From contig CAVPIB010000001.1 in assembly GCA_963704885.1 (NCBI GenBank), forward strand, positions 288,001 to 352,000: 64,000 bases of DNA, in the 5' to 3' direction. Each line of letters begins with the position of its first letter. Within the stretch, counting starts at the first letter, position 1. The notes beneath the pieces are model-generated. The model was not told where the DNA came from and ran no database searches. It was given only the letters and a program-made list of their open reading frames with translations. This stretch comes from an uncultured Actinomycetes bacterium (GTDB lineage Bacteria; Actinomycetota; UBA4738; HRBIN12). The translations under genes were made by a program, and so were the position numbers. Positions 20,534-29,868 of this stretch are shown piece after piece.

Positions 20534-20959
20534 ATGCGCCAATGGGAGCTGATCGGCATCACCGATCAGGTATCGGTGACACCCGAGAGACACGTGGCGA
20601 ACGACGATCCGGCCGAGGGACCAGCCTTCTTCTGGACCACGGACGGTGCACTGCGCCTCAGAGGCATGAGCCGGAGCGCGGCACAGGCTATCGGCCGCCC
20701 CGTGGAGTGGTGTCTCGGACGTGACCTGCTGGACGTGTTCGGGCTGGACGGACCCAACGCGGGTCTGCTGGACGCGCATATCACCGCCCTCAGTGGGGAC
20801 ACGGCCACGTTCACCTTCCGGGGGGACCGGGTGAGCGTTCGGTGCTTCGTCCAGCCCATCACCGATGCCATGGGGAGGGCATCCGGAACGTGCTGCCTGG
20901 CTGCACGGATCGAGAACGTCGACATCCGCGACGATCCGGATCGCTCCGCGGTCGCCTGA
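20534..20959 (+). CDS. Small stand-alone PAS-like protein
   Basis: AGGGGG RBS; FWTTDGALRL...GRDLLDVF...ALSG...VQPITDAMGRASG resembles a PAS fold. Confidence 0.55.
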   Translation: MRQWELIGITDQVSVTPERHVANDDPAEGPAFFWTTDGALRLRGMSRSAAQAIGRPVEWCLGRDLLDVFGLDGPNAGLLDAHITALSGDTATFTFRGDRVSVRCFVQPITDAMGRASGTCCLAARIENVDIRDDPDRSAVA

Positions 20960-20969
20960 TCCGACGCGT

Positions 20970-22242
20970 TCAGCCGGTGAAGGAAGCGGCGGCGTCCAGC
21001 GTGCGCTCGGCTCGTCTCTTCGTCGTGCGTCGTTCCTAGGCTCCAGAGCTCGTAGCCCGACGGCGGTAGGTACACCCCCCGCTCCAGCAGGTGGTGGAAG
21101 AACCGCGCGTATCGGTCGTGGTCGGCCGCCCGGGCGTCCTCGAAGTTGCGGACCGGCCCTTCCGTGAAGAAGACGCTGAACATCGACGAGGCGCGGTTGA
21201 TCGTGGCGGGGATGCCGGCGGCCGTGAATCGTTCGGCGAGACCGTCAGCGAGTTGTCCGGCGTGCCGCTCCAGGAACGGGTAGGGCTGTTCCTCGCGGGC
21301 GAGGTCGAGCGCGGCGATCCCCGCGGACACCGCCACCGGGTTCCCGCTCAACGTGCCGGCTTGATAGACCGGACCGAGAGGCGCGAGGTGTTCCATCACG
21401 TCGCGGCGTCCACCGAACGCCGCGCACGGGAACCCGCCTCCCATGATCTTGCCTAGGGTCGTGAGGTCCGGCATCACCTCGCACAGCGACTGCGCGCCCG
21501 AATACGCCACGCGGAAGCCGGTGATGACCTCGTCGAAGATCAACAAGGCGCCGTATCCGTCACAGAGGGCGCGCAGACCGCTGAGGAAGGACGGATCTGG
21601 GGCCACGACCCCCATGTTCGCGGCGATCGGCTCCACGATCACGGCGGCAACCGCTTCGCCTTGGTCGGCGAAGACCCCGCGAACCGCCTCGAGGTCATCG
21701 AACGGGGCGGTCAGCGTGTCCTTCGTAGAGCCTTCGGTGACGCCCGGAGATCCGGGGATCCCGAACGTCGCGACCCCCGAGCCGGCCTTCGCCAGCAGGC
21801 CGTCTGAGTGTCCGTGGTAACAGCCGTCGAACTTCAAGATCCGGTCGCGCCCGGTGAACCCTCGCGCCAGACGGATCGCGCTCATGGTCGCCTCCGTTCC
21901 GGACGAGACGAGGCGCGCCATCTCCACGCTCGGCACCGCGTCGACCAGCCGTTCCGCGAGTTGCACCTCGAGCTCGGTCGGAGCACCGAAGGATGTGCCG
22001 CGCGCCGCAGTGGTCGTGGCCGCCGCCACGATCTCGGCTCGGGCGTGTCCGAACAGCAGCGCGCCCCAAGACTGCACGTAGTCGACGTAGCGGTTCCCGT
22101 CCACGTCGAAGAGGTACGGGCCCTCGCCACGTTCGATGAAGCGAGGGGTTCCGCCCACCGCGCCGAACGCCCGGACGGGCGAGTCGACGCCTCCGGGTAT
22201 CACCTCGCGCGCGCGCGCGAACAGCGCCTCGGATGAGGTCAC
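20970..22242 (-). CDS. hemL: Glutamate-1-semialdehyde 2,1-aminomutase with an apparent frameshift near 21010
   Basis: PGGVDSPVRAF, SGTEATM, DEVITGFR, LGKIMGGG and QAGTLSGNP; a plausible C-terminus ERTLDAAASFTG* lies in another frame ending at 20970. Confidence 0.94.
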
Positions 22243-22252
22243 AGTTCTGAGG

Positions 22253-23236
22253 TCAGCCCTCCTGCAGCCACTCGGCCGCGTCCTTGGCGTGGTAGGTGAG
22301 GATCAGGTCGGCGCCGGCGCGACGGATCGATGTCAGGATCTCCACGACGGTCCCTCGTTCGTCGAGCCAGCCGTTCTGTGCGGCCGCCTTCACCATGGCG
22401 TACTCGCCGGACACGTTGTACGCGGCCACCGGGAACGATGTGGCGTCCTTCGCCCGGCGGATCACGTCTAGATAGGGGAGTGCGGGCTTGATCATCACCA
22501 CGTCGGCGCCCTCCTCGATGTCGGCGCGCACCTCGCGGATGGCCTCGTCGGCGTTGGCTGGGTCCATCTGATAGCCGCTGCGGTCGCCGAATCGAGGAGC
22601 ACACTCGGCAGCCTCGCGGAACGGGCCGTAGAACGAGCTCGCGAACTTGGCCGCGTAGGCCATGACGCCGACGGCGTCATGGCCGGAGGAGTCGAGCGCG
22701 TCGCGGATGGCGGCCACCTGGCCGTCCATCATGCCGCTCGGTCCGACCATCTGAGCCCCCGCCTCCGCCTGCGCGACCGCTATCCGTCGGTACCGCTCGA
22801 GCGTGGCGTCGTTGTCTACGTTCCCGTCTTGATCCAGCACCCCGCAGTGGCCGTGGTCCGTGTACTCGTCCAAACAGAGGTCGGCGATGACGACGTGCTC
22901 GTCGCCCAACTCCTCACGGAGCGTTCGGAGCCCGCATTGGGCGATCCCGTCGGGGTTCCAAGCCGCGGTTCCCTCAGCGTCCTTGCGTTCCGGAACGCCG
23001 AAGAGCATGAACGCGCTCACTCCGCGCGCCGCGATCTGCGCGACCTCCTTGCGGACCGACTCAAGCGTGTGCTGGAACTGCCCCGGCATGGAGCCGATCG
23101 CCACGGGGTCGGTGAGCCCCTCCTTCACGAAGAGCGGCGCGATCAGCTGACGGGGGGCCAGGTCCGTCTCGCGGATCAACGCCCTGAGGGCGGGGGTCCG
23201 GCGCATGCGCCGAGGACGCTGTTGGGGGAAGCTCAT
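22253..23236 (-). CDS. hemB: Porphobilinogen synthase
   Basis: DLCLDEYTDHGHCG, PSGMMDG, FYGPFREA, MIKPA and YNVSGEY. Confidence 0.97.
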   Translation of the reverse strand: MSFPQQRPRRMRRTPALRALIRETDLAPRQLIAPLFVKEGLTDPVAIGSMPGQFQHTLESVRKEVAQIAARGVSAFMLFGVPERKDAEGTAAWNPDGIAQCGLRTLREELGDEHVVIADLCLDEYTDHGHCGVLDQDGNVDNDATLERYRRIAVAQAEAGAQMVGPSGMMDGQVAAIRDALDSSGHDAVGVMAYAAKFASSFYGPFREAAECAPRFGDRSGYQMDPANADEAIREVRADIEEGADVVMIKPALPYLDVIRRAKDATSFPVAAYNVSGEYAMVKAAAQNGWLDERGTVVEILTSIRRAGADLILTYHAKDAAEWLQEG

Positions 23237-23997
23237 CCCCGGATGCTAGCGCGTCGCCGCGGTGTGAAGGCCCGCTCCAACGCCGCGACCAGGCCCTCGA
23301 TCGTGTGGGGGCGCGCCACGGCCGCGACGCGTATGCCGCGATCGCGGGCCTCTTCGGCCGTGACCGGACCGATGCACACCACCTTGGGGCTGCCGCGCAC
23401 CACGCCGACGGCTCCCACGAAGCCCCGAACCGTCGACGCGCTCGTGAACGTGATCGCGTCAACATGACCGTCGCGGAGTGCATCGCGAGCATCGACCGGT
23501 AGCGACTTGGCCATCCTGGTGCGGTAGGCATCCACTCGTTCCGGGCTCCAGCCCTTGGCGGCTAGCGCCTCCTCGAGCCCGACGGGGGCGATATCAGCAC
23601 GCGCACATAGCACCCGGCCCTCGCCGCGGGGGAACGCCCGCGCCAGCGCGCCGGTCGTGAACGAGCTCGGCGTGAGGTCGGGTCCTCGACGCGCCCATCG
23701 CCGGAACGCGTCGCTCGTACCCTCGCCGACGGTCGCGACCTGGGCGCGCAAGTCCGAGGGCTGGATCCGGGATGCGAGCATCTCCACGGTCGACCGGCTC
23801 GTGAGCGTGATCCACGAGTAGCGCCCATCGGCCAGGTCACGCAACGCTCGCGTCAGGGCGGCTGATCGCGCGGGAACGATCTCGATCGAGGGAGCCGCGA
23901 TCGGAGCGGCGCCGGCTCGACGAAGCAGCCGAACCAGCTCGGCCGACTGATCCGTCGGTCTCGTGATCAGAACGACCCGCCCGGCGAGCGGCTTCAT
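23233..23997 (-). CDS. hemD: Uroporphyrinogen-III synthase
   Basis: VLITRP, ITFTSASTV, CIGPVTA; position within the hem operon. Confidence 0.9.
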   Translation of the reverse strand: MKPLAGRVVLITRPTDQSAELVRLLRRAGAAPIAAPSIEIVPARSAALTRALRDLADGRYSWITLTSRSTVEMLASRIQPSDLRAQVATVGEGTSDAFRRWARRGPDLTPSSFTTGALARAFPRGEGRVLCARADIAPVGLEEALAAKGWSPERVDAYRTRMAKSLPVDARDALRDGHVDAITFTSASTVRGFVGAVGVVRGSPKVVCIGPVTAEEARDRGIRVAAVARPHTIEGLVAALERAFTPRRRASIRG

Positions 23998-24892
23998 CCC
24001 TGGTTGCCAGTGACTCGAGGATCTCTTCCGCGCCTTCGGCGATGAGCGCTTTCGTTGCAAGGCCCGCGACCCCCTCAGGGGTGTCGGAGACCACCTGTGC
24101 CTGCGCCAAGCGGGAACCGTCGGGAGACACCACGACAGCGATCATCTCTATACGGCGATCGTCCACGGTGGCGAGCGCGCCCAGCGGCAGTGTGCACCCG
24201 CCCCCCAACCGCCACATCAGCGAACGCTCCGCCTCCAACGCTATCCGGCTGGCCGCGTGGTCGAGCGACGCGAGCGCCGTCAGAGTTGGGAAGTCGTCCT
24301 CGCGTGCCTGTAACGCCAGCGCTCCTTGTCCGGGCGCGGGCACCATCACATCGAAGCCCAGCGGGGCCGAGTGCTCCGGTGACGCTCCCAGGCGCGACAG
24401 TCCGGCCGCCGCGAGCACCGCGGCATCCACCACACCCTCCGCGACCTTCCGCAGCCGGGTGTCGACGTTCCCGCGCAGGTCCTGGACGGTGACCCCGGGG
24501 AACGCCCGGAGGAGTTGCGCACGGCGACGGATGCTGGACGTGCCGATCACCGCACCCGATGGGAGCGCCGGCTCGCGCAGGACCAGCACGTCGGCTGGAT
24601 CGGCTCGTTCGGGAACCGCACCGATCACCAATCCATCCTCGTCATCCGCCGGTAGGTCTTTGGCGGAGTGGACCGCGACATCGATCGTCCCGCGCTCGAG
24701 CGCGTCCAGGATCGTGTCCACGAACAACCCTTTCAGCCCTCCAGGAACGTCCTGCGACGGTTCGCCTTCGTCGCCTGATGTCGACATGGGGACCAGCTCG
24801 GCGTGGACGCCGCGATCCGCCAAGCTTCGCAACACCTCGCCTGCCTGCGCGAGCGCGAGTGGGGAACGACGGGTGCCGATCCGGAGCGTCAC
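23837..24892 (-). CDS. hemC: Hydroxymethylbilane synthase (true stop probably near 23994)
   Basis: IGTRRSPLALAQA, AVHSAKD, GTSSIRR, RGNVDTR, PAPGQGAL and GGCTLP; a 160-nt overlap with hemD suggests a missing base at the junction. Confidence 0.94.
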   Translation of the reverse strand: MTLRIGTRRSPLALAQAGEVLRSLADRGVHAELVPMSTSGDEGEPSQDVPGGLKGLFVDTILDALERGTIDVAVHSAKDLPADDEDGLVIGAVPERADPADVLVLREPALPSGAVIGTSSIRRRAQLLRAFPGVTVQDLRGNVDTRLRKVAEGVVDAAVLAAAGLSRLGASPEHSAPLGFDVMVPAPGQGALALQAREDDFPTLTALASLDHAASRIALEAERSLMWRLGGGCTLPLGALATVDDRRIEMIAVVVSPDGSRLAQAQVVSDTPEGVAGLATKALIAEGAEEILESLATRDEAARRAGRSDHETDGSVGRAGSAASSSRRRSDRGSLDRDRSRAISRPDASVA

Positions 24893-26166
24893 TCGGAGTC
24901 TGGGTCGATGCCGATGCCGAGCAGCTCGGCCAAGACGTCGGCGTGCATGCCGTCGGACCCGGGCTCGCTTCGCTCCTTGAGCGCCACGATCGGGTCGTGC
25001 AGTAGCTTGGCTGCGACTCCGCGCGCGAGCGACACGACGGCCTCGCGCTCATCGGGCGTGAGTGCGGCCAACCGTGCTGCGTAGCGGTCGAGCTCGGCGC
25101 TCACGGCCTCGTCGCCCCGCCGGCGTACCGCGCGTATCAGCGGCGCCAGCGCGTCCGACCGCCGACGTACCACCCATCGCCGCACTTCCTCCGTCACGAT
25201 CGCGTGTGCACGGGCCATGTCATCCGCCGTCTCCTCGGCGTGGGTGGAGAGGCGGTCCCGGATCGCCTCGATGTCGATCAACCGCACACCGTCCAGCGCA
25301 GCGACATCCGGGTCTACGTCCCGGGGAACGGCGATGTCGATCAACACGAGCGGCTCGCGGCGGCCCTCGATCGCGCCTCGAACCGCGTCCGCGTCGATCA
25401 CGATCCCTGCGGCCCCCGTCGCGGACACGACGATGGCGGCGTTCGCCAGTGTCTCCGGCAGCTCTTCAAGACCGCCGGGTTCGGCGCCCGTCATCGCGGC
25501 GAGCTCTCGTGCAGATCCGACCGAGCGATTCAGCACGCGGATATCACCGACACCACGTCCTCTGAGGTGCTTCACGGCGATGCGCGCCATCTGACCGGCG
25601 CCCACCACCACCACTCTGCATCCATCTAGCGGGCCGAGCACCTCGCTCGCCAGATCGGCGCCGACGGACACGAACGCGTCGGGTGCCGCCCCGAGCGCCG
25701 TCTCGGCCCTGGCTCGGCGACCCGCCCGCCCGGCGGCGTGGAAGAGCGCGGTGAGAACCGGCCCCGAGGCCTCCTCGCGCGCCGCCCTACGCAGCGCATC
25801 GCGCACCTGCGCGTGGATCTGGGTCTCGCCGATGATCATGGAGTCCAGTCCGGCGGCGACCGTGAACAGGTGGTCGGCTGCGTCTCGTTCCCAGTGGGAG
25901 TACAGCGGCTCGGCCAGCTCCTCCACGCCGACCCCGCGGGTCTCGGTCAGCACCCGCTTGAGCGCCAGGAAGCCCGCGTGGTACGAGGAGACGCTGGCGG
26001 TGAGCTCCACACGGTTGCAGGTGGACACGATGACCGCCTCGTCGATCGCATCCTGATCCAGGGCATGGCGATACGCCTTGGCCAGGTCGTCGTCCGCGAA
26101 CGAGAGCCGCTCCAGCAGCTCGATCGGTGCGCGACGGAAGCTGATCCCGAGGGTAAGGATAGGCAT
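24889..26166 (-). CDS. hemA: Glutamyl-tRNA reductase
   Basis: STCNRVE, GLDSMIIGETQI, GAGQM and DIAVPRDV. Confidence 0.95.
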   Translation of the reverse strand: MPILTLGISFRRAPIELLERLSFADDDLAKAYRHALDQDAIDEAVIVSTCNRVELTASVSSYHAGFLALKRVLTETRGVGVEELAEPLYSHWERDAADHLFTVAAGLDSMIIGETQIHAQVRDALRRAAREEASGPVLTALFHAAGRAGRRARAETALGAAPDAFVSVGADLASEVLGPLDGCRVVVVGAGQMARIAVKHLRGRGVGDIRVLNRSVGSARELAAMTGAEPGGLEELPETLANAAIVVSATGAAGIVIDADAVRGAIEGRREPLVLIDIAVPRDVDPDVAALDGVRLIDIEAIRDRLSTHAEETADDMARAHAIVTEEVRRWVVRRRSDALAPLIRAVRRRGDEAVSAELDRYAARLAALTPDEREAVVSLARGVAAKLLHDPIVALKERSEPGSDGMHADVLAELLGIGIDPDSE

Positions 26167-26231
26167 CTGAGGTCGGCCGTATCCTAGCCGCCTGGCTCCC
26201 GGGCGGTCCGCGCGTCGGGCACGCGGCGAGA

Positions 26232-27773
26232 CTAGTGGGCGGGGGCCTCCGACGCTGTCGCGGGAGCATGCAGGGGCAGGCGAACCGTGAACGTGCTGCC
26301 TTCGCCCGGCGCGCTCTCCACCTGGACGGACCCTCCGAGATGGCGGACCAGGTCCCTCACCATGGACAGGCCGAGTCCCGCCCCCCGGAACCGGCGGGTG
26401 GCCGACGAGTCCACCTGGTAGAAGCGCTCGAAGATCCGGTCGAGCTCCTCGGGCGCCATCCCGATCCCGTGATCGCGGATCCAGAAGACCAACTCGCTGC
26501 CTCGGGCACGGGCGCCGAACTCGCACTTGACGTCGTCGGCCGAGTACTTAAGCGCGTTATCCAGCAGGTTCGACATCACGCGTCCCAACAGCTGACGGTC
26601 GGTGTGCAGCACGGGGATGTCGTCGGGAACGTCGACCGACACCCGCTCGGAGTCGGTGCCCAGACCCTCCACCGCCTCTCGGCACAGGTCCTCGAACAAG
26701 ACGCGCCCGACCGAGATCGACAGCTGATCGCTCTCCAGCTGCGACGTGGTGAGCAGGTTCTCCACCAACCCGACCAATCGGTCGCCTTGGCGCTCGATCC
26801 GCTCGAGGAACTCGTCCCGAAGCTCCGGATCCTCGGCGAACTGCGGTTGGCGCAGGGTCTTGGCGTATCCGTTCATGGCCGTGATCGGGGTCCTGAGCTC
26901 ATGGGAGACCACAGCCACGAACTCTCCCTTCATCCGGTTCAGTTCCCGGAGCTGGTCGACGGTGGCGCTCTCCTTCCTCAGCAGACCCTCCAAGCGCTCG
27001 GCCTGGTCCTTCAGAAGTGAGTTCTGCTCGGCCAGCCGATCCGTTAACACGCGACTCCGGAAGTACATCTGGCGCGCGAACACCAGCGGCGCCAGGAACA
27101 CGACGACCGACCAGGCGCCTTCCTCCACGTAGAACCTGGCGATCACCACGCCGAAGAGCGCGAGGCCGATGTAGGAGAGCAGGAACTCGCCCGGCCGGGT
27201 GCCGTGCATCTTCTTCAGGACCTGCCTCACCGTGAGTCCGTACTGGAGTGAAGCGTGCAAGGCGACGAGGATCGCGTTGATCGCGTACGCCACGACCGTC
27301 GCCGCGAGCGCGGCGGGGACCAGCTCCCACCAGGGATCGAGGACGTTCGACAGTTGATGGAACATCGCGCTACCCGCCACGACGGCGAGCGCCATCTGCG
27401 AGCGGTTCCAGAACGACCGCAAAGCCGGAACCTCGCCGCGGAACTCGTGGACGTCTGACGACCCCAAGATCGCGATCGTGCCTGCGACCGGAGGGGGGAG
27501 GAGCAAGGCGACGCCGATCATGATCGGGAACGACAACGAGAGCTCGATGTCCTGCCAGGCCGGGATCGGGATAAGGTCCACGCCGGCGATGCAGAGCGTG
27601 AAGAACAGGGCGCCCCATCCGATCGTCTCCCAGTCCGTCTGCCCTGCCTCCCACGCGAGCCAGATCGCTATAGGGGCGACCAGGACGATCTCGAGCCACT
27701 GCACGGACCGGTCGGTCGATCTGCCTTTAGCGGTCGGGCTATCAGATCGCAGCTCCAGATCCTCCAGCTCCAT
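26232..27773 (-). CDS. Sensor histidine kinase with a multi-TM (about 7) N-terminal sensor, MASE9-like
   Basis: Long hydrophobic N-terminal half; SHELRTP, NLLDNALKYS, DHGIG and GAGLGL. Confidence 0.92.
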   Translation of the reverse strand: MELEDLELRSDSPTAKGRSTDRSVQWLEIVLVAPIAIWLAWEAGQTDWETIGWGALFFTLCIAGVDLIPIPAWQDIELSLSFPIMIGVALLLPPPVAGTIAILGSSDVHEFRGEVPALRSFWNRSQMALAVVAGSAMFHQLSNVLDPWWELVPAALAATVVAYAINAILVALHASLQYGLTVRQVLKKMHGTRPGEFLLSYIGLALFGVVIARFYVEEGAWSVVVFLAPLVFARQMYFRSRVLTDRLAEQNSLLKDQAERLEGLLRKESATVDQLRELNRMKGEFVAVVSHELRTPITAMNGYAKTLRQPQFAEDPELRDEFLERIERQGDRLVGLVENLLTTSQLESDQLSISVGRVLFEDLCREAVEGLGTDSERVSVDVPDDIPVLHTDRQLLGRVMSNLLDNALKYSADDVKCEFGARARGSELVFWIRDHGIGMAPEELDRIFERFYQVDSSATRRFRGAGLGLSMVRDLVRHLGGSVQVESAPGEGSTFTVRLPLHAPATASEAPAH

Positions 27774-28318
27774 CAGACCGCCTCACGCTCGACGACCCGG
27801 CGTGTTCGGCGCGGCATCGCTCCCACGATGAACCAGGCCGCTCCTAGTTGCACGCTCACGTCTCCGATCGAGATCGCCTGCTCGATCGGCGCGCCGATCG
27901 GGATCACGTCACCGAGGAAGAGAAGCTTCGTATCGGCGTCGGCCAGGTGGTGCTTGGCGCCGCCGTTTCGCACGAGGTCCTCCAGGGTCGCCTGTTGGCC
28001 CGACGCCACCAGCGCGTGCTCGGAGACGGGCATCCCGTGGTTGGCGACGATGACGAGAGCGTTCAGAGCTAGTCCCAGGAGGATAAGGACGAACCCCGAA
28101 GCGGACAGGTTCCGTATGGCGAACGCGATCAGCGCAGCGAACGACGCGGAGAGCGCGATGGTGCCGGCCGTCCCTCCGAGAGGTGCGAACTGCATGAGGA
28201 CCCCCGCGACGGCGAGACCCCACCAACGCAGACGTACGGAGGGGAAGTCGCGAACGGTACCCCCGGTCACCAGACCGAGGATGAACGCCCCGACGATCGT
28301 GAACAGGATCAAGCGCAA
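27773..28318 (-). CDS. DUF5317-like membrane protein
   Basis: G.LTGG N-terminus, GLALNALVIVANHGMPVS, LLFLGDVIP and ISIGD motifs; stop overlaps the kinase start. Confidence 0.82.
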   Translation of the reverse strand: MRLILFTIVGAFILGLVTGGTVRDFPSVRLRWWGLAVAGVLMQFAPLGGTAGTIALSASFAALIAFAIRNLSASGFVLILLGLALNALVIVANHGMPVSEHALVASGQQATLEDLVRNGGAKHHLADADTKLLFLGDVIPIGAPIEQAISIGDVSVQLGAAWFIVGAMPRRTRRVVEREAV

Positions 28319-28349
28319 GTTCGCACACCTTCAGATGTCGACCTCTCAG

Positions 28350-28377
28350 TCATCGGGGGTATGTACGTGCCGCTTGA
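28350..28377 (-). promoter_or_regulatory. Putative sigma28/WhiG-like promoter for the DUF5317-kinase operon (TCAA-N16-CCCGATGA)
   Basis: Minus-strand TCAAGCGGCACGTACATACCCCCGATGA. Confidence 0.6.
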
Positions 28378-28409
28378 GCGTGTCAGCCAGACAGGCGATG
28401 GATCTGCCC

Positions 28410-28437
28410 TAAAGGTCCGACAGTCACCGTCCGACAA
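28410..28437 (+). promoter_or_regulatory. Putative sigma28/WhiG-like promoter of peptide gene 1 (TAAA-N16-TCCGACAA)
   Basis: Read from the sequence; conserved in copy 2. Confidence 0.6.
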
Positions 28438-28478
28438 CTTGGGGGCAGGAACCCCTGCGAAGGAAAGGAGCACGAGTG

Positions 28479-28565
28479 ATGGAACGCCTCAGGCGGACCC
28501 TTCTCTCGCTCGGCGCCGTCGCCGTCTTCTTGATGGCTGCGGGCGCTGGATGGCGGAACTACTAA
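28479..28565 (+). CDS. Small peptide 1, 28 aa: MERLRRTLLSLGAVAVFLMAAGAGWRNY
   Basis: AAGGAG RBS at 28465-28470, paralog 320 nt downstream with the frame conserved, and a downstream hairpin; too short for the ORF track. Confidence 0.82.
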   Translation: MERLRRTLLSLGAVAVFLMAAGAGWRNY

Positions 28566-28583
28566 GTTCCGTTCCCCCCGGAC

Positions 28584-28614
28584 ACCGGGGCCGCCGCGAA
28601 GCGGCGGCCCCGGT
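28584..28614 (+). terminator. Perfect 14-bp hairpin after peptide 1
   Basis: ACCGGGGCCGCCGC-GAA-GCGGCGGCCCCGGT. Confidence 0.75.
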
Positions 28615-28736
28615 AACACCGGTCTCCCACGGCAGCGCTTGGGACCCCCTCACGGGGCCGCGTCCCGATCCAGGGATCCCCCTCGATCCTCGACCCGGAT
28701 AGAGCCTGTCGGCCACATGGGCGATAGATCGACCCC

Positions 28737-28763
28737 TAAAGGTCCGACAGATACCGCCGATGA
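28737..28763 (+). promoter_or_regulatory. Putative sigma28/WhiG-like promoter of peptide gene 2 (TAAA-N15-GCCGATGA)
   Basis: One mismatch from the FliA/SigD/WhiG consensus TAAA-N15-GCCGATAA. Confidence 0.72.
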
Positions 28764-28798
28764 TCGGGGAAGGAACCAGCGAGGAAGGAGCATGAGTG

Positions 28799-28900
28799 AT
28801 GGAACGCCTCAAGCGGATCACCTTCCTGCTCGGAGCTGCGGCCGCCTTCTTGATGGCCGCGGGCATCGGCTTCGGCATGGATGGATGGCGGAACGGGTAG
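28799..28900 (+). CDS. Small peptide 2, 33 aa: MERLKRITFLLGAAAAFLMAAGIGFGMDGWRNG
   Basis: GAGGAAGGAG RBS at 28781-28790; paralog of peptide 1 with an in-frame 15-nt length difference; downstream hairpin. Confidence 0.82.
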   Translation: MERLKRITFLLGAAAAFLMAAGIGFGMDGWRNG

Positions 28901-28918
28901 GTCCCGCTCTCAGGTTGC

Positions 28919-28945
28919 CGGGCCCGCCGCGACGCGGCGGGCCCG
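28919..28945 (+). terminator. Perfect 12-bp hairpin after peptide 2
   Basis: CGGGCCCGCCGC-GAC-GCGGCGGGCCCG. Confidence 0.75.
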
Positions 28946-28974: not shown

Positions 28975-29063
28975 GGAGACGTGCCTGAGTGGCCGAAAGG
29001 AGCCGCCTGCTAAGCGGTTAAGGGGGTAACACTCCTTCCCGGGTTCGAATCCCGGCGTCTCCG
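28975..29063 (+). tRNA. tRNA-Ser(GCT)
   Basis: GGAGACG/CGTCTCC acceptor stem, anticodon loop CTGCTAA, long variable arm; upstream TAGAAT. Confidence 0.96.
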
Positions 29064-29117
29064 CCGGTTGGCGACTCAGGTTGAAGTTCTAGGATCGGGT
29101 GTGCCGATAGGTCCAGG

Positions 29118-29720
29118 GTGCGCCGCCGTCTGACCGTCGGGTTGATCCTGGGCCTCCTCGTGTCCTCGCTCGGGGGCAGGGCTCAAGGCGTCCCACCGGC
29201 GGAGGTCCACGTCGATGCGCTCGACGATCACTTCCTGCCGTCCCTGGTTTCGGTCAAGCGAGGTGGGACCGTGGTGTGGGACTTCACTGGGCTTCGCACT
29301 CACTCCGCCACCGACGAGAGCGGCCTCGATCTGTACGACTCGGGTCTGGTGGCCCCAGGTGGTTCGAGCTTCTCGTTCACGTTCGAGTCGGCCGGAACGT
29401 ACCGGTTCGTGTGCACGTTGCATGAGGGGATGGACGGGCGGATCTCGGTGCCGATGCGCGCGTCACCTAAGGAAGGCTCGATCGACGAAACGTTCACCGT
29501 TCGTTGGTCGAAGACCGACGCGTCCCCCGGTTTCGTGTTCGACGTGCGCATCCGCGTGAAGAAGGGCGTTTGGCAGATCTGGCAGGACGGGGTGACGTTC
29601 GCGAACGCCGTGTTCCACCCTGGGGTGGTCGGAAAGGTGCGGTTCGCCGGGAGGCTGCGATCGTTGAGCTCGGGGGCGACATCCGAGTGGTCCGAGCCGA
29701 TCCCGATCCGCGTGCGATAG
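29118..29720 (+). CDS. Secreted cupredoxin (plastocyanin-like) domain protein with a C-terminal beta-rich domain
   Basis: Signal peptide; H in THSAT and type-1 Cu loop CTLHEGM. Confidence 0.8.
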   Translation: MRRRLTVGLILGLLVSSLGGRAQGVPPAEVHVDALDDHFLPSLVSVKRGGTVVWDFTGLRTHSATDESGLDLYDSGLVAPGGSSFSFTFESAGTYRFVCTLHEGMDGRISVPMRASPKEGSIDETFTVRWSKTDASPGFVFDVRIRVKKGVWQIWQDGVTFANAVFHPGVVGKVRFAGRLRSLSSGATSEWSEPIPIRVR

Positions 29721-29753: not shown

Positions 29754-29826
29754 GCGCCGGTAGCTCAATGGATAGAGCATCTGACTACGGATCAGAAGGT
29801 TGGGGGTTCGACTCCCTCCCGGCGCG
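29754..29826 (+). tRNA. tRNA-Arg(ACG)
   Basis: GCGCCGG/CCGGCGC acceptor stem, TCTGA-CTACGGA-TCAGA anticodon arm. Confidence 0.96.
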
Positions 29827-29868
29827 CAAGGTCTGCTGAGCCGTCACCGCGGTCCGTATGCTCCGCCA

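Follow-up and report, generated by a model that had tools for sequence, protein, structure and literature searches.

The window analyzed here, a 64,000-nucleotide stretch of a contig from an uncultured Actinomycetes bacterium (CAVPIB010000001.1, positions 288,001 to 352,000), carries two small unannotated genes, named pepA and pepB, which stand divergent from an overlapping gene pair for a DUF5317 membrane protein and a polytopic sensor histidine kinase. Sequence comparison indicates that pepA and pepB are real, conserved coding genes of a new micro-protein family, and that the trio of micro-protein, DUF5317 and sensor is conserved across an uncultured group of Actinomycetota. The system, in which the micro-proteins join DUF5317 and a MASE9-like domain, is best filed as small-protein control of a membrane sensor. 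The interpretation that we favour, with somewhat less than even confidence, is that the micro-protein resides in the membrane and modulates a DUF5317/MASE9 receptor.

An earlier reading of the same DNA (the original prediction) had proposed here an Agr-analogous but non-homologous peptide-signalling system. The physical features on which it relied were all located. Both small open reading frames (ORFs) were found, each with a sigma-28-like promoter, a Shine-Dalgarno (SD) site and a GC-rich hairpin, the pepA promoter being weaker than that of pepB. The divergent DUF5317 and kinase genes overlap, with matches to PF17248 (E 3.6e-27) and to HisKA/HATPase_c, and TAAA or TCAA with CGA-type -10 elements occurs at all three promoters, which thus belong to one class. 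The features, in window coordinates, are as follows.

26232–27773, minus strand: sensor histidine kinase gene, 513 amino acids, orphan; supported by Pfam, AlphaFold2 and precomputed PF20972 matches of homologues
27773–28318, minus strand: DUF5317 membrane protein gene, 181 amino acids, TTG start; supported by the PF17248 match and AlphaFold2
28350–28377 (read 28377–28350), minus strand: putative sigma-28/WhiG-like promoter of the DUF5317-kinase pair, TCAA-N16-CCCGATGA, read from the sequence
28410–28437, plus strand: putative sigma-28/WhiG-like promoter of pepA, TAAA-N16-TCCGACAA, 6 of 8 positions in the -10 element, read from the sequence
28460–28470, plus strand: pepA SD site AAGGAAAGGAG, 8 nucleotides before the ATG
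28479–28565, plus strand: pepA, ATG start, 28 amino acids, canonical family member
28584–28614, plus strand: terminator-like hairpin of pepA, 14-bp perfect GC-rich stem, -40.1 kcal/mol, z -5.4
28737–28763, plus strand: putative sigma-28/WhiG-like promoter of pepB, TAAA-N15-GCCGATGA, read from the sequence
28782–28790, plus strand: pepB SD site GAGGAAGGAG, 8 nucleotides before the ATG
28799–28900, plus strand: pepB, ATG start, 33 amino acids, divergent paralogue of pepA
28919–28945, plus strand: terminator-like hairpin of pepB, 11–12-bp perfect stem, -31.4 kcal/mol, z -1.9

The stop codon of the DUF5317 gene and the start codon of the kinase gene overlap in TGATG. The folding energy of the pepA hairpin was equalled by none of 200 shuffles and that of the pepB hairpin by 7 of 200; no U tract follows either hairpin. 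As the original prediction had stated, no response regulator is adjacent: none of the 49 Response_reg matches of the genome lies within the 64-kb window (C1:288001–352000), the closest on either side being at C1:217748 and C1:390929.

pepA encodes a basic N-terminus (MERLRR), an 18-residue hydrophobic stretch and the end G-W-R-N-Y, and pepB carries a 7-residue insertion between G-x-G and W-R-N, with WRN kept. The two loci are paralogous including their upstream DNA (81% mean column identity over 288 columns), and the 14-mer TAAAGGTCCGACAG, common to both, occurs twice in the window against 0.12 expected, a count reached in none of 100 shuffles. A six-frame pattern search of the 3.0-Mb genome returned pepA and pepB as the only copies, and no pepB-like second copy was seen in other genomes of the genus. 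When 41 related genomes were searched with pepB, matches at 250–350 bp from a DUF5317 gene were obtained in 13 of them. From all fetched loci we extracted 51 distinct genes of 25–33 amino acids, a family missed by Pfam and NCBIfam scans. Their pattern is a basic N-terminus (usually R-R) followed by x3-S-L-G-[AW]-x-A-x-F-L-M-A-[AV]-G-A-G-[WF]-[KR], then 1–3 variable residues and the stop.

Several lines of evidence indicate that these are coding genes. Codon-position entropy in 48 aligned cores was 0.70, 0.46 and 1.29 for the first, second and third positions, so that the third varies most, and among 11 close relatives pS was 0.50 and pN 0.066, a pN/pS of 0.13; the pooled value across 46 unique cores was 0.42, at saturating divergence. 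Length and stop position are retained across the 51 genes, all 51 have an SD-like site 3–18 nucleotides upstream, and 32 show a perfect stem of at least 8 bp within the 70 nucleotides downstream. Chance ORFs or a non-coding element (a regulatory RNA or a repeated promoter cassette) could be considered, given very short ORFs in GC-rich DNA and two copies that are conserved as well upstream as within the ORFs, but this explanation is excluded for practical purposes by the codon pattern, the SD sites and the stems, together with the constant length and stop and an Rfam scan of the locus that gave nothing besides two tRNAs at E up to 1.

Constraint on the peptide is strongest inside the hydrophobic helix and not in the tail. 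A(-11) and G(-4) occur in all 46 unique cores; next come G(-2) (45 cores), L(-15), A(-6) and A(-3) (44 each), G(-14) (43) and M(-7) (42). The conserved W position is F in 10 of the 46 and R in 1. Past [WF]-[KR] the 1–3 residues are freely variable or missing, some members ending at W-[KR]-N or W-K-W. Between genera, DUF5317 (about 49%) and the sensor (about 50%) are less similar than the peptide core. At 25–33 amino acids, with 18 hydrophobic residues and a W/F-K/R anchor, the members have the single transmembrane segment and the size below 50 amino acids that mark kinase-modulating small membrane proteins, and by the positive-inside rule the basic end would lie inside the cell. Three other identities for the peptides were rejected: prepilin or Flp-pilin-like, as no G|F...E or G|xxxxEY motif was found; leader-peptide attenuator, as the peptides have their own terminators and a tRNA downstream; and ComX-like prenylated Trp, as Phe replaces Trp in those 10 cores.

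A second micro-protein class was seen in tandem co-directional loci, directly upstream of each family gene (L072, L095, L105, L140, L177, L179, L181 and L182; for example L177:4976-5074, minus strand). Its members have about 25–34 amino acids, their own GGAGG site and the pattern ...W[KR]HLLY[TS]xAxLATLxLAAGA[RK][FYW]K plus 2–3 residues. A pattern search found none in the genome of the window.

The distribution of the family was examined with a profile of 11 peptides (E <= 0.01). At the level of the class, 150 of 294 genomes matched, including 56 of 109 high-quality genomes and, in the family of the window, 131 of 222, with up to 6 peptide matches per genome. In an even sample of the phylum 16 of 401 genomes matched, 13 of the same class and 3 outside it. 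One of these three (G433) has a true member divergent from DUF5317 and sensor genes (locus L108); the other two (G364 and G435) matched at E about 8e-4 and may be chance. A scan of one genome per species gave 29 loci, all in metagenome-assembled genomes of uncultured Actinomycetota or 'Actinomycetes'. A search for sequencing runs gave 8 DNA runs with small shares, from 3 studies, and no RNA run.

We then considered the neighbours of the peptide genes in 37 loci, taken as 1.5 kb on either side of the best-scoring peptide matches, a choice by which the sample leans to clear cases. Both DUF5317 and the sensor were present in 31 of them, the sensor only in 3, DUF5317 only in none and neither in 3 (L097, L106 and L107). 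The linkage of the small ORFs to DUF5317 and a polytopic sensor, as originally claimed, is thus borne out, and similar small ORFs do occur near DUF5317 genes elsewhere. At the three sensor-only loci (L085, L099 and L102) the sensor gene is directly divergent from the peptide gene, with no DUF5317 between; as these three genomes have DUF5317 paralogues elsewhere, they do not demonstrate that DUF5317 is dispensable. All 14 loci analyzed over 13 kb have DUF5317 followed by the same sensor, which runs on into kinase domains in 12, meets the contig end in 1 and carries another output in 1. In one genus peptide(s), DUF5317 and sensor are co-directional on one strand, the sensor carrying GGDEF and EAL domains, not a kinase; here each family gene is preceded by a gene of the second class, in arrays of several copies. 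The partner in the association would therefore be the sensor domain rather than the output domain, as judged from these gene arrangements. ORF clustering of 29 12-kb loci, a method that is noisy in GC-rich DNA, found nothing universal besides DUF5317 and the kinase.

Two genomes of the same genus, G001 (87% complete) and G007 (98% complete), gave no peptide match, and their best sensor match was 37% identical, against 72% in the peptide-bearing G002; peptide and sensor orthologue were thus probably lost as a unit. Neither was seen in G003 (75% complete).

The sensor kinase matched HisKA (PF00512, E 3.1e-19) and HATPase_c (PF02518, E 1.1e-29), and its phospho-acceptor H291 is nearly invariant in the alignment, as in class I histidine kinases. 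The AlphaFold2 model has roughly seven spans, in agreement with the sensor topology first proposed. Long helices cover residues 21–45, 54–67, 117–141, 148–178, 194–218 and 220–267, with two short ones at 82–91 and 94–104, and D107, E110, R124, Q126, N166 and E196 are invariant polar or charged residues. The MASE9-like region spans residues about 20–240; it scored 20.8 bits on MASE9 (PF20972), under the 24.3 cut-off, and a precomputed PF20972 match exists for 6 of the 120 homologues listed. In the available text of the study that defined MASE9 on HD-GYP proteins such as Thermotoga maritima TM1467 (bioRxiv 10.1101/2021.11.05.467447), the periplasmic segments of the domain are short and poorly conserved and its membrane core contains charged residues, which suggests intramembrane ligand binding, and the single characterised protein was poorly expressed. 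The model of our sensor fits that description: about eight segments, of which two would not reach across the membrane, and a polar/charged core. The sensors found here resemble MASE9 proteins also in joining several outputs (kinase, GGDEF-EAL and HisKA_3 kinase), and differ in the score of the window sensor below the Pfam cut-off and in their partners, DUF5317 being unmentioned and small proteins undescribed in the available part of that text.

The DUF5317 protein matched PF17248 over profile positions 34–151 with 95.7 bits against a cut-off of 25, its only other Pfam match being a weak one to YrhC. Its AlphaFold2 model (pLDDT 87.3, pTM 0.81) has five transmembrane helices and, at residues 96–150, a four-stranded sheet that by the positive-inside rule would be extracytoplasmic. 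Q43, S59, N70, G82, N86, M96, P97, D137, P144, S150, G152, D153 and G159 are invariant in 53 sequences; of these, M96, P97, D137, S150, G152 and D153 belong to the sheet or its immediate surroundings, as do K122 and H123, which are nearly invariant. Foldseek against the PDB gave 6 matches, none at E <= 0.001 (best TM score 0.2), a PDB sequence profile search gave one chance match (E 0.35), and an ESM Atlas search gave no usable match. A GxGD-type di-aspartyl intramembrane protease had been considered for the invariant D137 (LGD) and D153 (SxGD); this was dropped as unsupported, because both Asp lie in or next to the sheet and no fold matched. A literature search found no mention of DUF5317 or PF17248 and no description of the micro-proteins; for MASE9 the one relevant paper was the defining study cited above.

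DUF5317 is far wider spread than the peptide, being present in 39 of 41 relatives and in 152 of the 401 genomes of the phylum sample. We sampled 30 DUF5317-centred loci of the class (best family match per genome, not chosen for peptides) and searched their surroundings for the peptide (frames of at least 18 amino acids, E <= 0.01). A sensor-like ORF was found within 1.5 kb in 22 of the 30, in 17 at E < 1e-20, and elsewhere in the phylum membrane HD-GYP proteins were DUF5317 neighbours in 4 of 10 scanned cases, one with a sub-threshold MASE9 match. Accordingly, the suggested co-occurrence of DUF5317 with MASE9-type kinases or HD-GYP proteins was observed. The 22 pairs comprise 15 convergent, 4 co-directional and 3 divergent from DUF5317-MFS fusions. 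The suggestion that small ORFs would flank DUF5317 loci held only in part: a family peptide was found in 5 of the 30 unselected loci, namely all 4 co-directional pairs (one weak) and one MFS-fusion locus (weak), and none was found within 1.5 kb in the 15 convergent pairs. The one kinase scanned from a convergent pair (L006) is of HisKA_3 type with 22.4 bits on MASE9. We read DUF5317 as a general accessory of MASE9-type receptors, which would supply a small outward-facing domain, and the peptides as an addition in one branch.

The convergent loci (L005, L006, L008–L012, L014, L015, L017–L019, L022, L027 and L028) have frames that overlap by tens of bases at their 3′ ends. At L003, L004, L007 and L023 an MFS transporter-like half is fused to DUF5317 (L004: PF17248 with MFS_3/MFS_1); a weak peptide-family ORF (E 7.8e-5) is divergent from the fusion at L004, and a TCAA-N17-GCCGATA motif precedes it at L007. 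In other Actinomycetota, some of low GC, DUF5317 directly follows a membrane HD-GYP (HD_5) protein of 419–454 amino acids, with secA as a frequent neighbour (L143, L146, L158 and L169; also L143, L148 and L151). Another DUF5317 gene in the genome of the window stands alone some 4 kb ahead of it (G000:C1:283942-284304; L002:1477-1998, minus strand); this gene adjoins a LarC-like gene and has no family peptide and no sensor within 1.5 kb.

The promoter motif is shared widely in the family. In 30 of the 51 genes T[TAC]A[AC]G or TAAAG, 13–15 nucleotides and [GT]CCGA[TC][AG] were found, ending 33–42 nucleotides before the start; several further genes have near variants, and genes devoid of the motif are mostly internal in tandem arrays. 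The DUF5317 motif, TCAAG-N-CCCCGATA, is conserved at the same place in genus-level loci; other genera have a palindromic CTTAAG that seems to act both ways. The pepB promoter is the sole full match in the genome to TAAA-N15-[GC]CCGA[TC][AG]A. The motifs of the window (-35 TAAA or T(A/C)AA, spacer of 15–16 nucleotides, central CGA) agree with the sigma-28/WhiG consensus with -10 GCCGATAA, given as T(A/C)AA-N16-GCCGATAA for WhiG2 in the available text of one study (bioRxiv 10.64898/2026.01.14.699351) and likewise in that of another (PMC8325347). In both texts, as far as available, predicted WhiG targets of other Actinomycetota include type IV pili, regulators and cyclic di-GMP (c-di-GMP) enzymes. 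The genome encodes a FliA/WhiG sigma (G000:C4:464357-465031), which scored 268 bits where the cut-off is 189.6, and gave no match to flagellin; the three promoters would be read by this WhiG-like sigma. The likeness to the WhiG/RsiG regulons lies in the motif, and a pilin-like ORF is preceded by a similar one here; those studies scored annotated genes of cultured genera, and the available text names neither small ORFs nor DUF5317. Genome-wide promoter scans were loose (158 and 24 matches) and provide leads only. They placed a motif before a type IV pilin-like ORF (G|FTLVELMVV) at G000:C1:250900 and another at G000:C1:215723, before a 233-amino-acid response regulator (G000:C1:215821-216519) that heads a cluster of three receiver-domain genes and is a candidate for the cognate regulator.

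A simple model of the module would have pepA and pepB as single-pass proteins, with the basic N-terminus inside, an 18-residue helix rich in small residues in the membrane and the W/F-K/R anchor at the outer face. They would stay in the membrane as third subunit or intramembrane ligand of a receptor made of the MASE9-like sensor and DUF5317, of which the output here would be the histidine kinase fused to the sensor. The promoter type shared by both transcription units, back to back, leads us to propose that an alternative sigma would switch on receptor and modulator together. The micro-protein would then tune kinase output, as MgrB or SafA tune PhoQ, or, in the sister genera, c-di-GMP turnover. 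That it resides in the membrane, that it binds the sensor or DUF5317 and in which direction it acts are steps that we infer. The conserved small residues of pepA (G12, A15, A20, G22, A23 and G24) cover more than one face of the helix, which suggests that helices of the sensor or of DUF5317 surround it. A complex prediction on DUF5317, sensor residues 1–265 and pepA, the last as partner, gave no answer, with scores of 0.01 and 0.20 against a mark of 0.32 in a run without controls, and is counted neither way.

The closest known counterparts are MgrB and SafA, also single-pass proteins of fewer than 50 amino acids with their own small genes, whose action on a membrane sensor kinase is the mechanism proposed here. 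MgrB acts largely through its periplasmic region on a kinase with a periplasmic sensor domain; here the tail has 3–5 residues and the sensor almost no extramembrane part. The micro-proteins are unrelated to MgrB and SafA in sequence and differ also by the third protein, DUF5317, the often multi-copy genes and the promoter, which is of sigma-28 type and not, as far as apparent, under the cognate regulator. In the available text of the work consulted, MgrB is a membrane protein of 47 amino acids and inhibits PhoQ in Escherichia coli (PMC8404706).

Several points weigh against a membrane-resident modulator. The uncleaved state of the peptide and its contact with either protein are themselves deduced. 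Nearly all members have [AV]-G-A in front of G-[WF]-[KR], which on inspection agrees with the small-x-small rule for signal peptidase I sites, and the n-h-c layout resembles that of signal peptides of this genome, such as the cupredoxin at 29118. The WRN of pepB, kept after a 7-residue insertion, hints that the tail is read on its own, and the invariant S150, D137 and D153 of DUF5317, with K122 and H123, could be catalytic. Frequent tandem multi-copy genes and a second peptide class are unusual among known kinase-modulating small proteins, and 3 of the 37 peptide loci have neither partner within 1.5 kb.

These points are to a large extent those of a pheromone, an explanation that we regard as rather unlikely. 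The micro-protein would be a minimal precursor, a bare signal peptide cut after [AV]-G-A by signal peptidase or DUF5317, freeing a G-[WF]-[KR]-x-x of 4–6 residues that would be sensed outside by the DUF5317 sheet or the sensor loops and drive the kinase. An n-region, an h-region and a small-x-small site are recognisable by inspection, and because of this site and the retained WRN of pepB cleavage may occur. G-[WF]-[KR] is conserved with species-variable last residues, the tandem genes each have their own SD site, the trio is conserved, and S150, D137, D153, K122 and H123 cluster in the DUF5317 sheet by the last transmembrane helix. However, the hydrophobic core is much more conserved than that of a usual signal peptide, and more than the tail. 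Some members stop right after W-[KR]-N or W-K-W, and W changes to F in 10 of the 46 cores and to R in 1. The original proposal that a released Trp tail is the signal is therefore not sustained: variable residues follow G-[WF]-[KR], Phe stands for Trp and the constraint lies in the helix. Nor did the proposal fare better that DUF5317 matures or exports the peptide, as DUF5317 is paired with such sensors in the 15 convergent pairs and in HD-GYP operons that have no family peptide and matches no peptidase or transporter by fold or sequence. Finally, the promoter is of sigma-28 type with no obvious regulator-activated autoinduction site, and no response regulator, importer or exporter is conserved nearby.

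Known peptide systems offer little closer comparison. Agr, a system of Firmicutes, combines the endopeptidase AgrB, a precursor AgrD with a Cys (or Ser) for the thiolactone and an acidic tail, the kinase AgrC and an adjacent LytTR regulator. The present locus is like it in having a small precursor gene beside a polytopic membrane protein and a multi-transmembrane receptor kinase. It differs in that none of the 51 peptides has a Cys or a C-terminal acidic tail, all ending 1–3 residues past [WF]-[KR]; the neighbour is PF17248 with no AgrB family match; the kinase has HisKA and HATPase_c, HATPase_c_5 matching only at E 0.082; and the window has neither an adjacent LytTR regulator nor any Response_reg match. 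Of the Agr-analogous, non-homologous system first proposed, the genes, linkage, promoters and non-homology are supported; the processing role of DUF5317 and the Trp-tail signal are not. The active peptide, as the C-terminal 4–6 residues of a small precursor, would also recall Phr/Rap and ComX. In the Phr case the precursor includes a pro-region and the receptor is cytoplasmic. For ComX, which is made without a signal peptide, a Trp is essential and so is the prenyl transferase ComQ; its sensor is the polytopic kinase ComP. No such partner is conserved at the present loci, and Trp gives way to Phe in the cores already mentioned.

A broader version of the pheromone, which we consider improbable, makes these the smallest pheromone precursors. 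The DUF5317 sheet, with its Ser, Asp and near-invariant His, would cut or read the peptide, and DUF5317 would relay the signal inside the membrane to MASE9 receptors in control of kinase or c-di-GMP output; the c-di-GMP-linked WhiG sigma would govern the module as a whole. It would amount to a new peptide signalling in Actinomycetota, of neither Agr nor RRNPP type, with a first ligand and function for DUF5317 and MASE9.

Finally, the peptides might be co-regulated but functionally separate, that is membrane-active small proteins (stress- or toxin-like, or a subunit of another complex) that only share the bidirectional WhiG-type promoter region; to this we give quite a low probability. Each gene is monocistronic with its own promoter and terminator, copy number varies, orphan copies exist (the 3 of 37 loci without either partner), and type I toxins typically have small, hydrophobic ORFs behind a strong SD site. 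Against this, the genes stay adjacent at the level of genus, family and order, whether they are divergent or co-directional and whichever output domain the sensor carries. The genomes G001 and G007 lack the peptide and the sensor orthologue alike, and the member outside the class (L108) is again beside DUF5317 and the sensor.

A modulator of the membrane sensor would give the micro-proteins, DUF5317 and their sensor a first functional context. DUF5317 recurs beside MASE9-like receptors with kinase, GGDEF-EAL and HD-GYP outputs, and any function would apply well beyond this clade. The family is a candidate intramembrane ligand or modulator, easily synthesised and tested. Most known examples of sensor kinases tuned by small proteins come from enterobacteria, and the principle would be broadened by a case conserved in an uncultured, deep lineage of actinobacteria. 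The module also appears to be part of the sigma-28/WhiG regulon of a non-flagellated actinobacterium; in the sister genera this regulon would then feed back on c-di-GMP.

Other genes flank the locus. A tRNA-Ser(GCT) (28975–29065, plus strand) starts 30 bp past the pepB hairpin and is followed on the same strand by the gene of a secreted cupredoxin-like protein (29118–29720; Copper-bind, E 9.2e-07) and by a tRNA-Arg(ACG) (29754–29827). In other genomes, 11 of 29 loci have a LarC-like gene next to the peptide. A haem biosynthesis cluster (20566–26170, minus strand) follows the kinase gene on the same strand, about 60 bp past its stop; its genes were called hemA, hemC, hemD, hemB and hemL from translations alone, and read-through from the kinase operon into it is possible.

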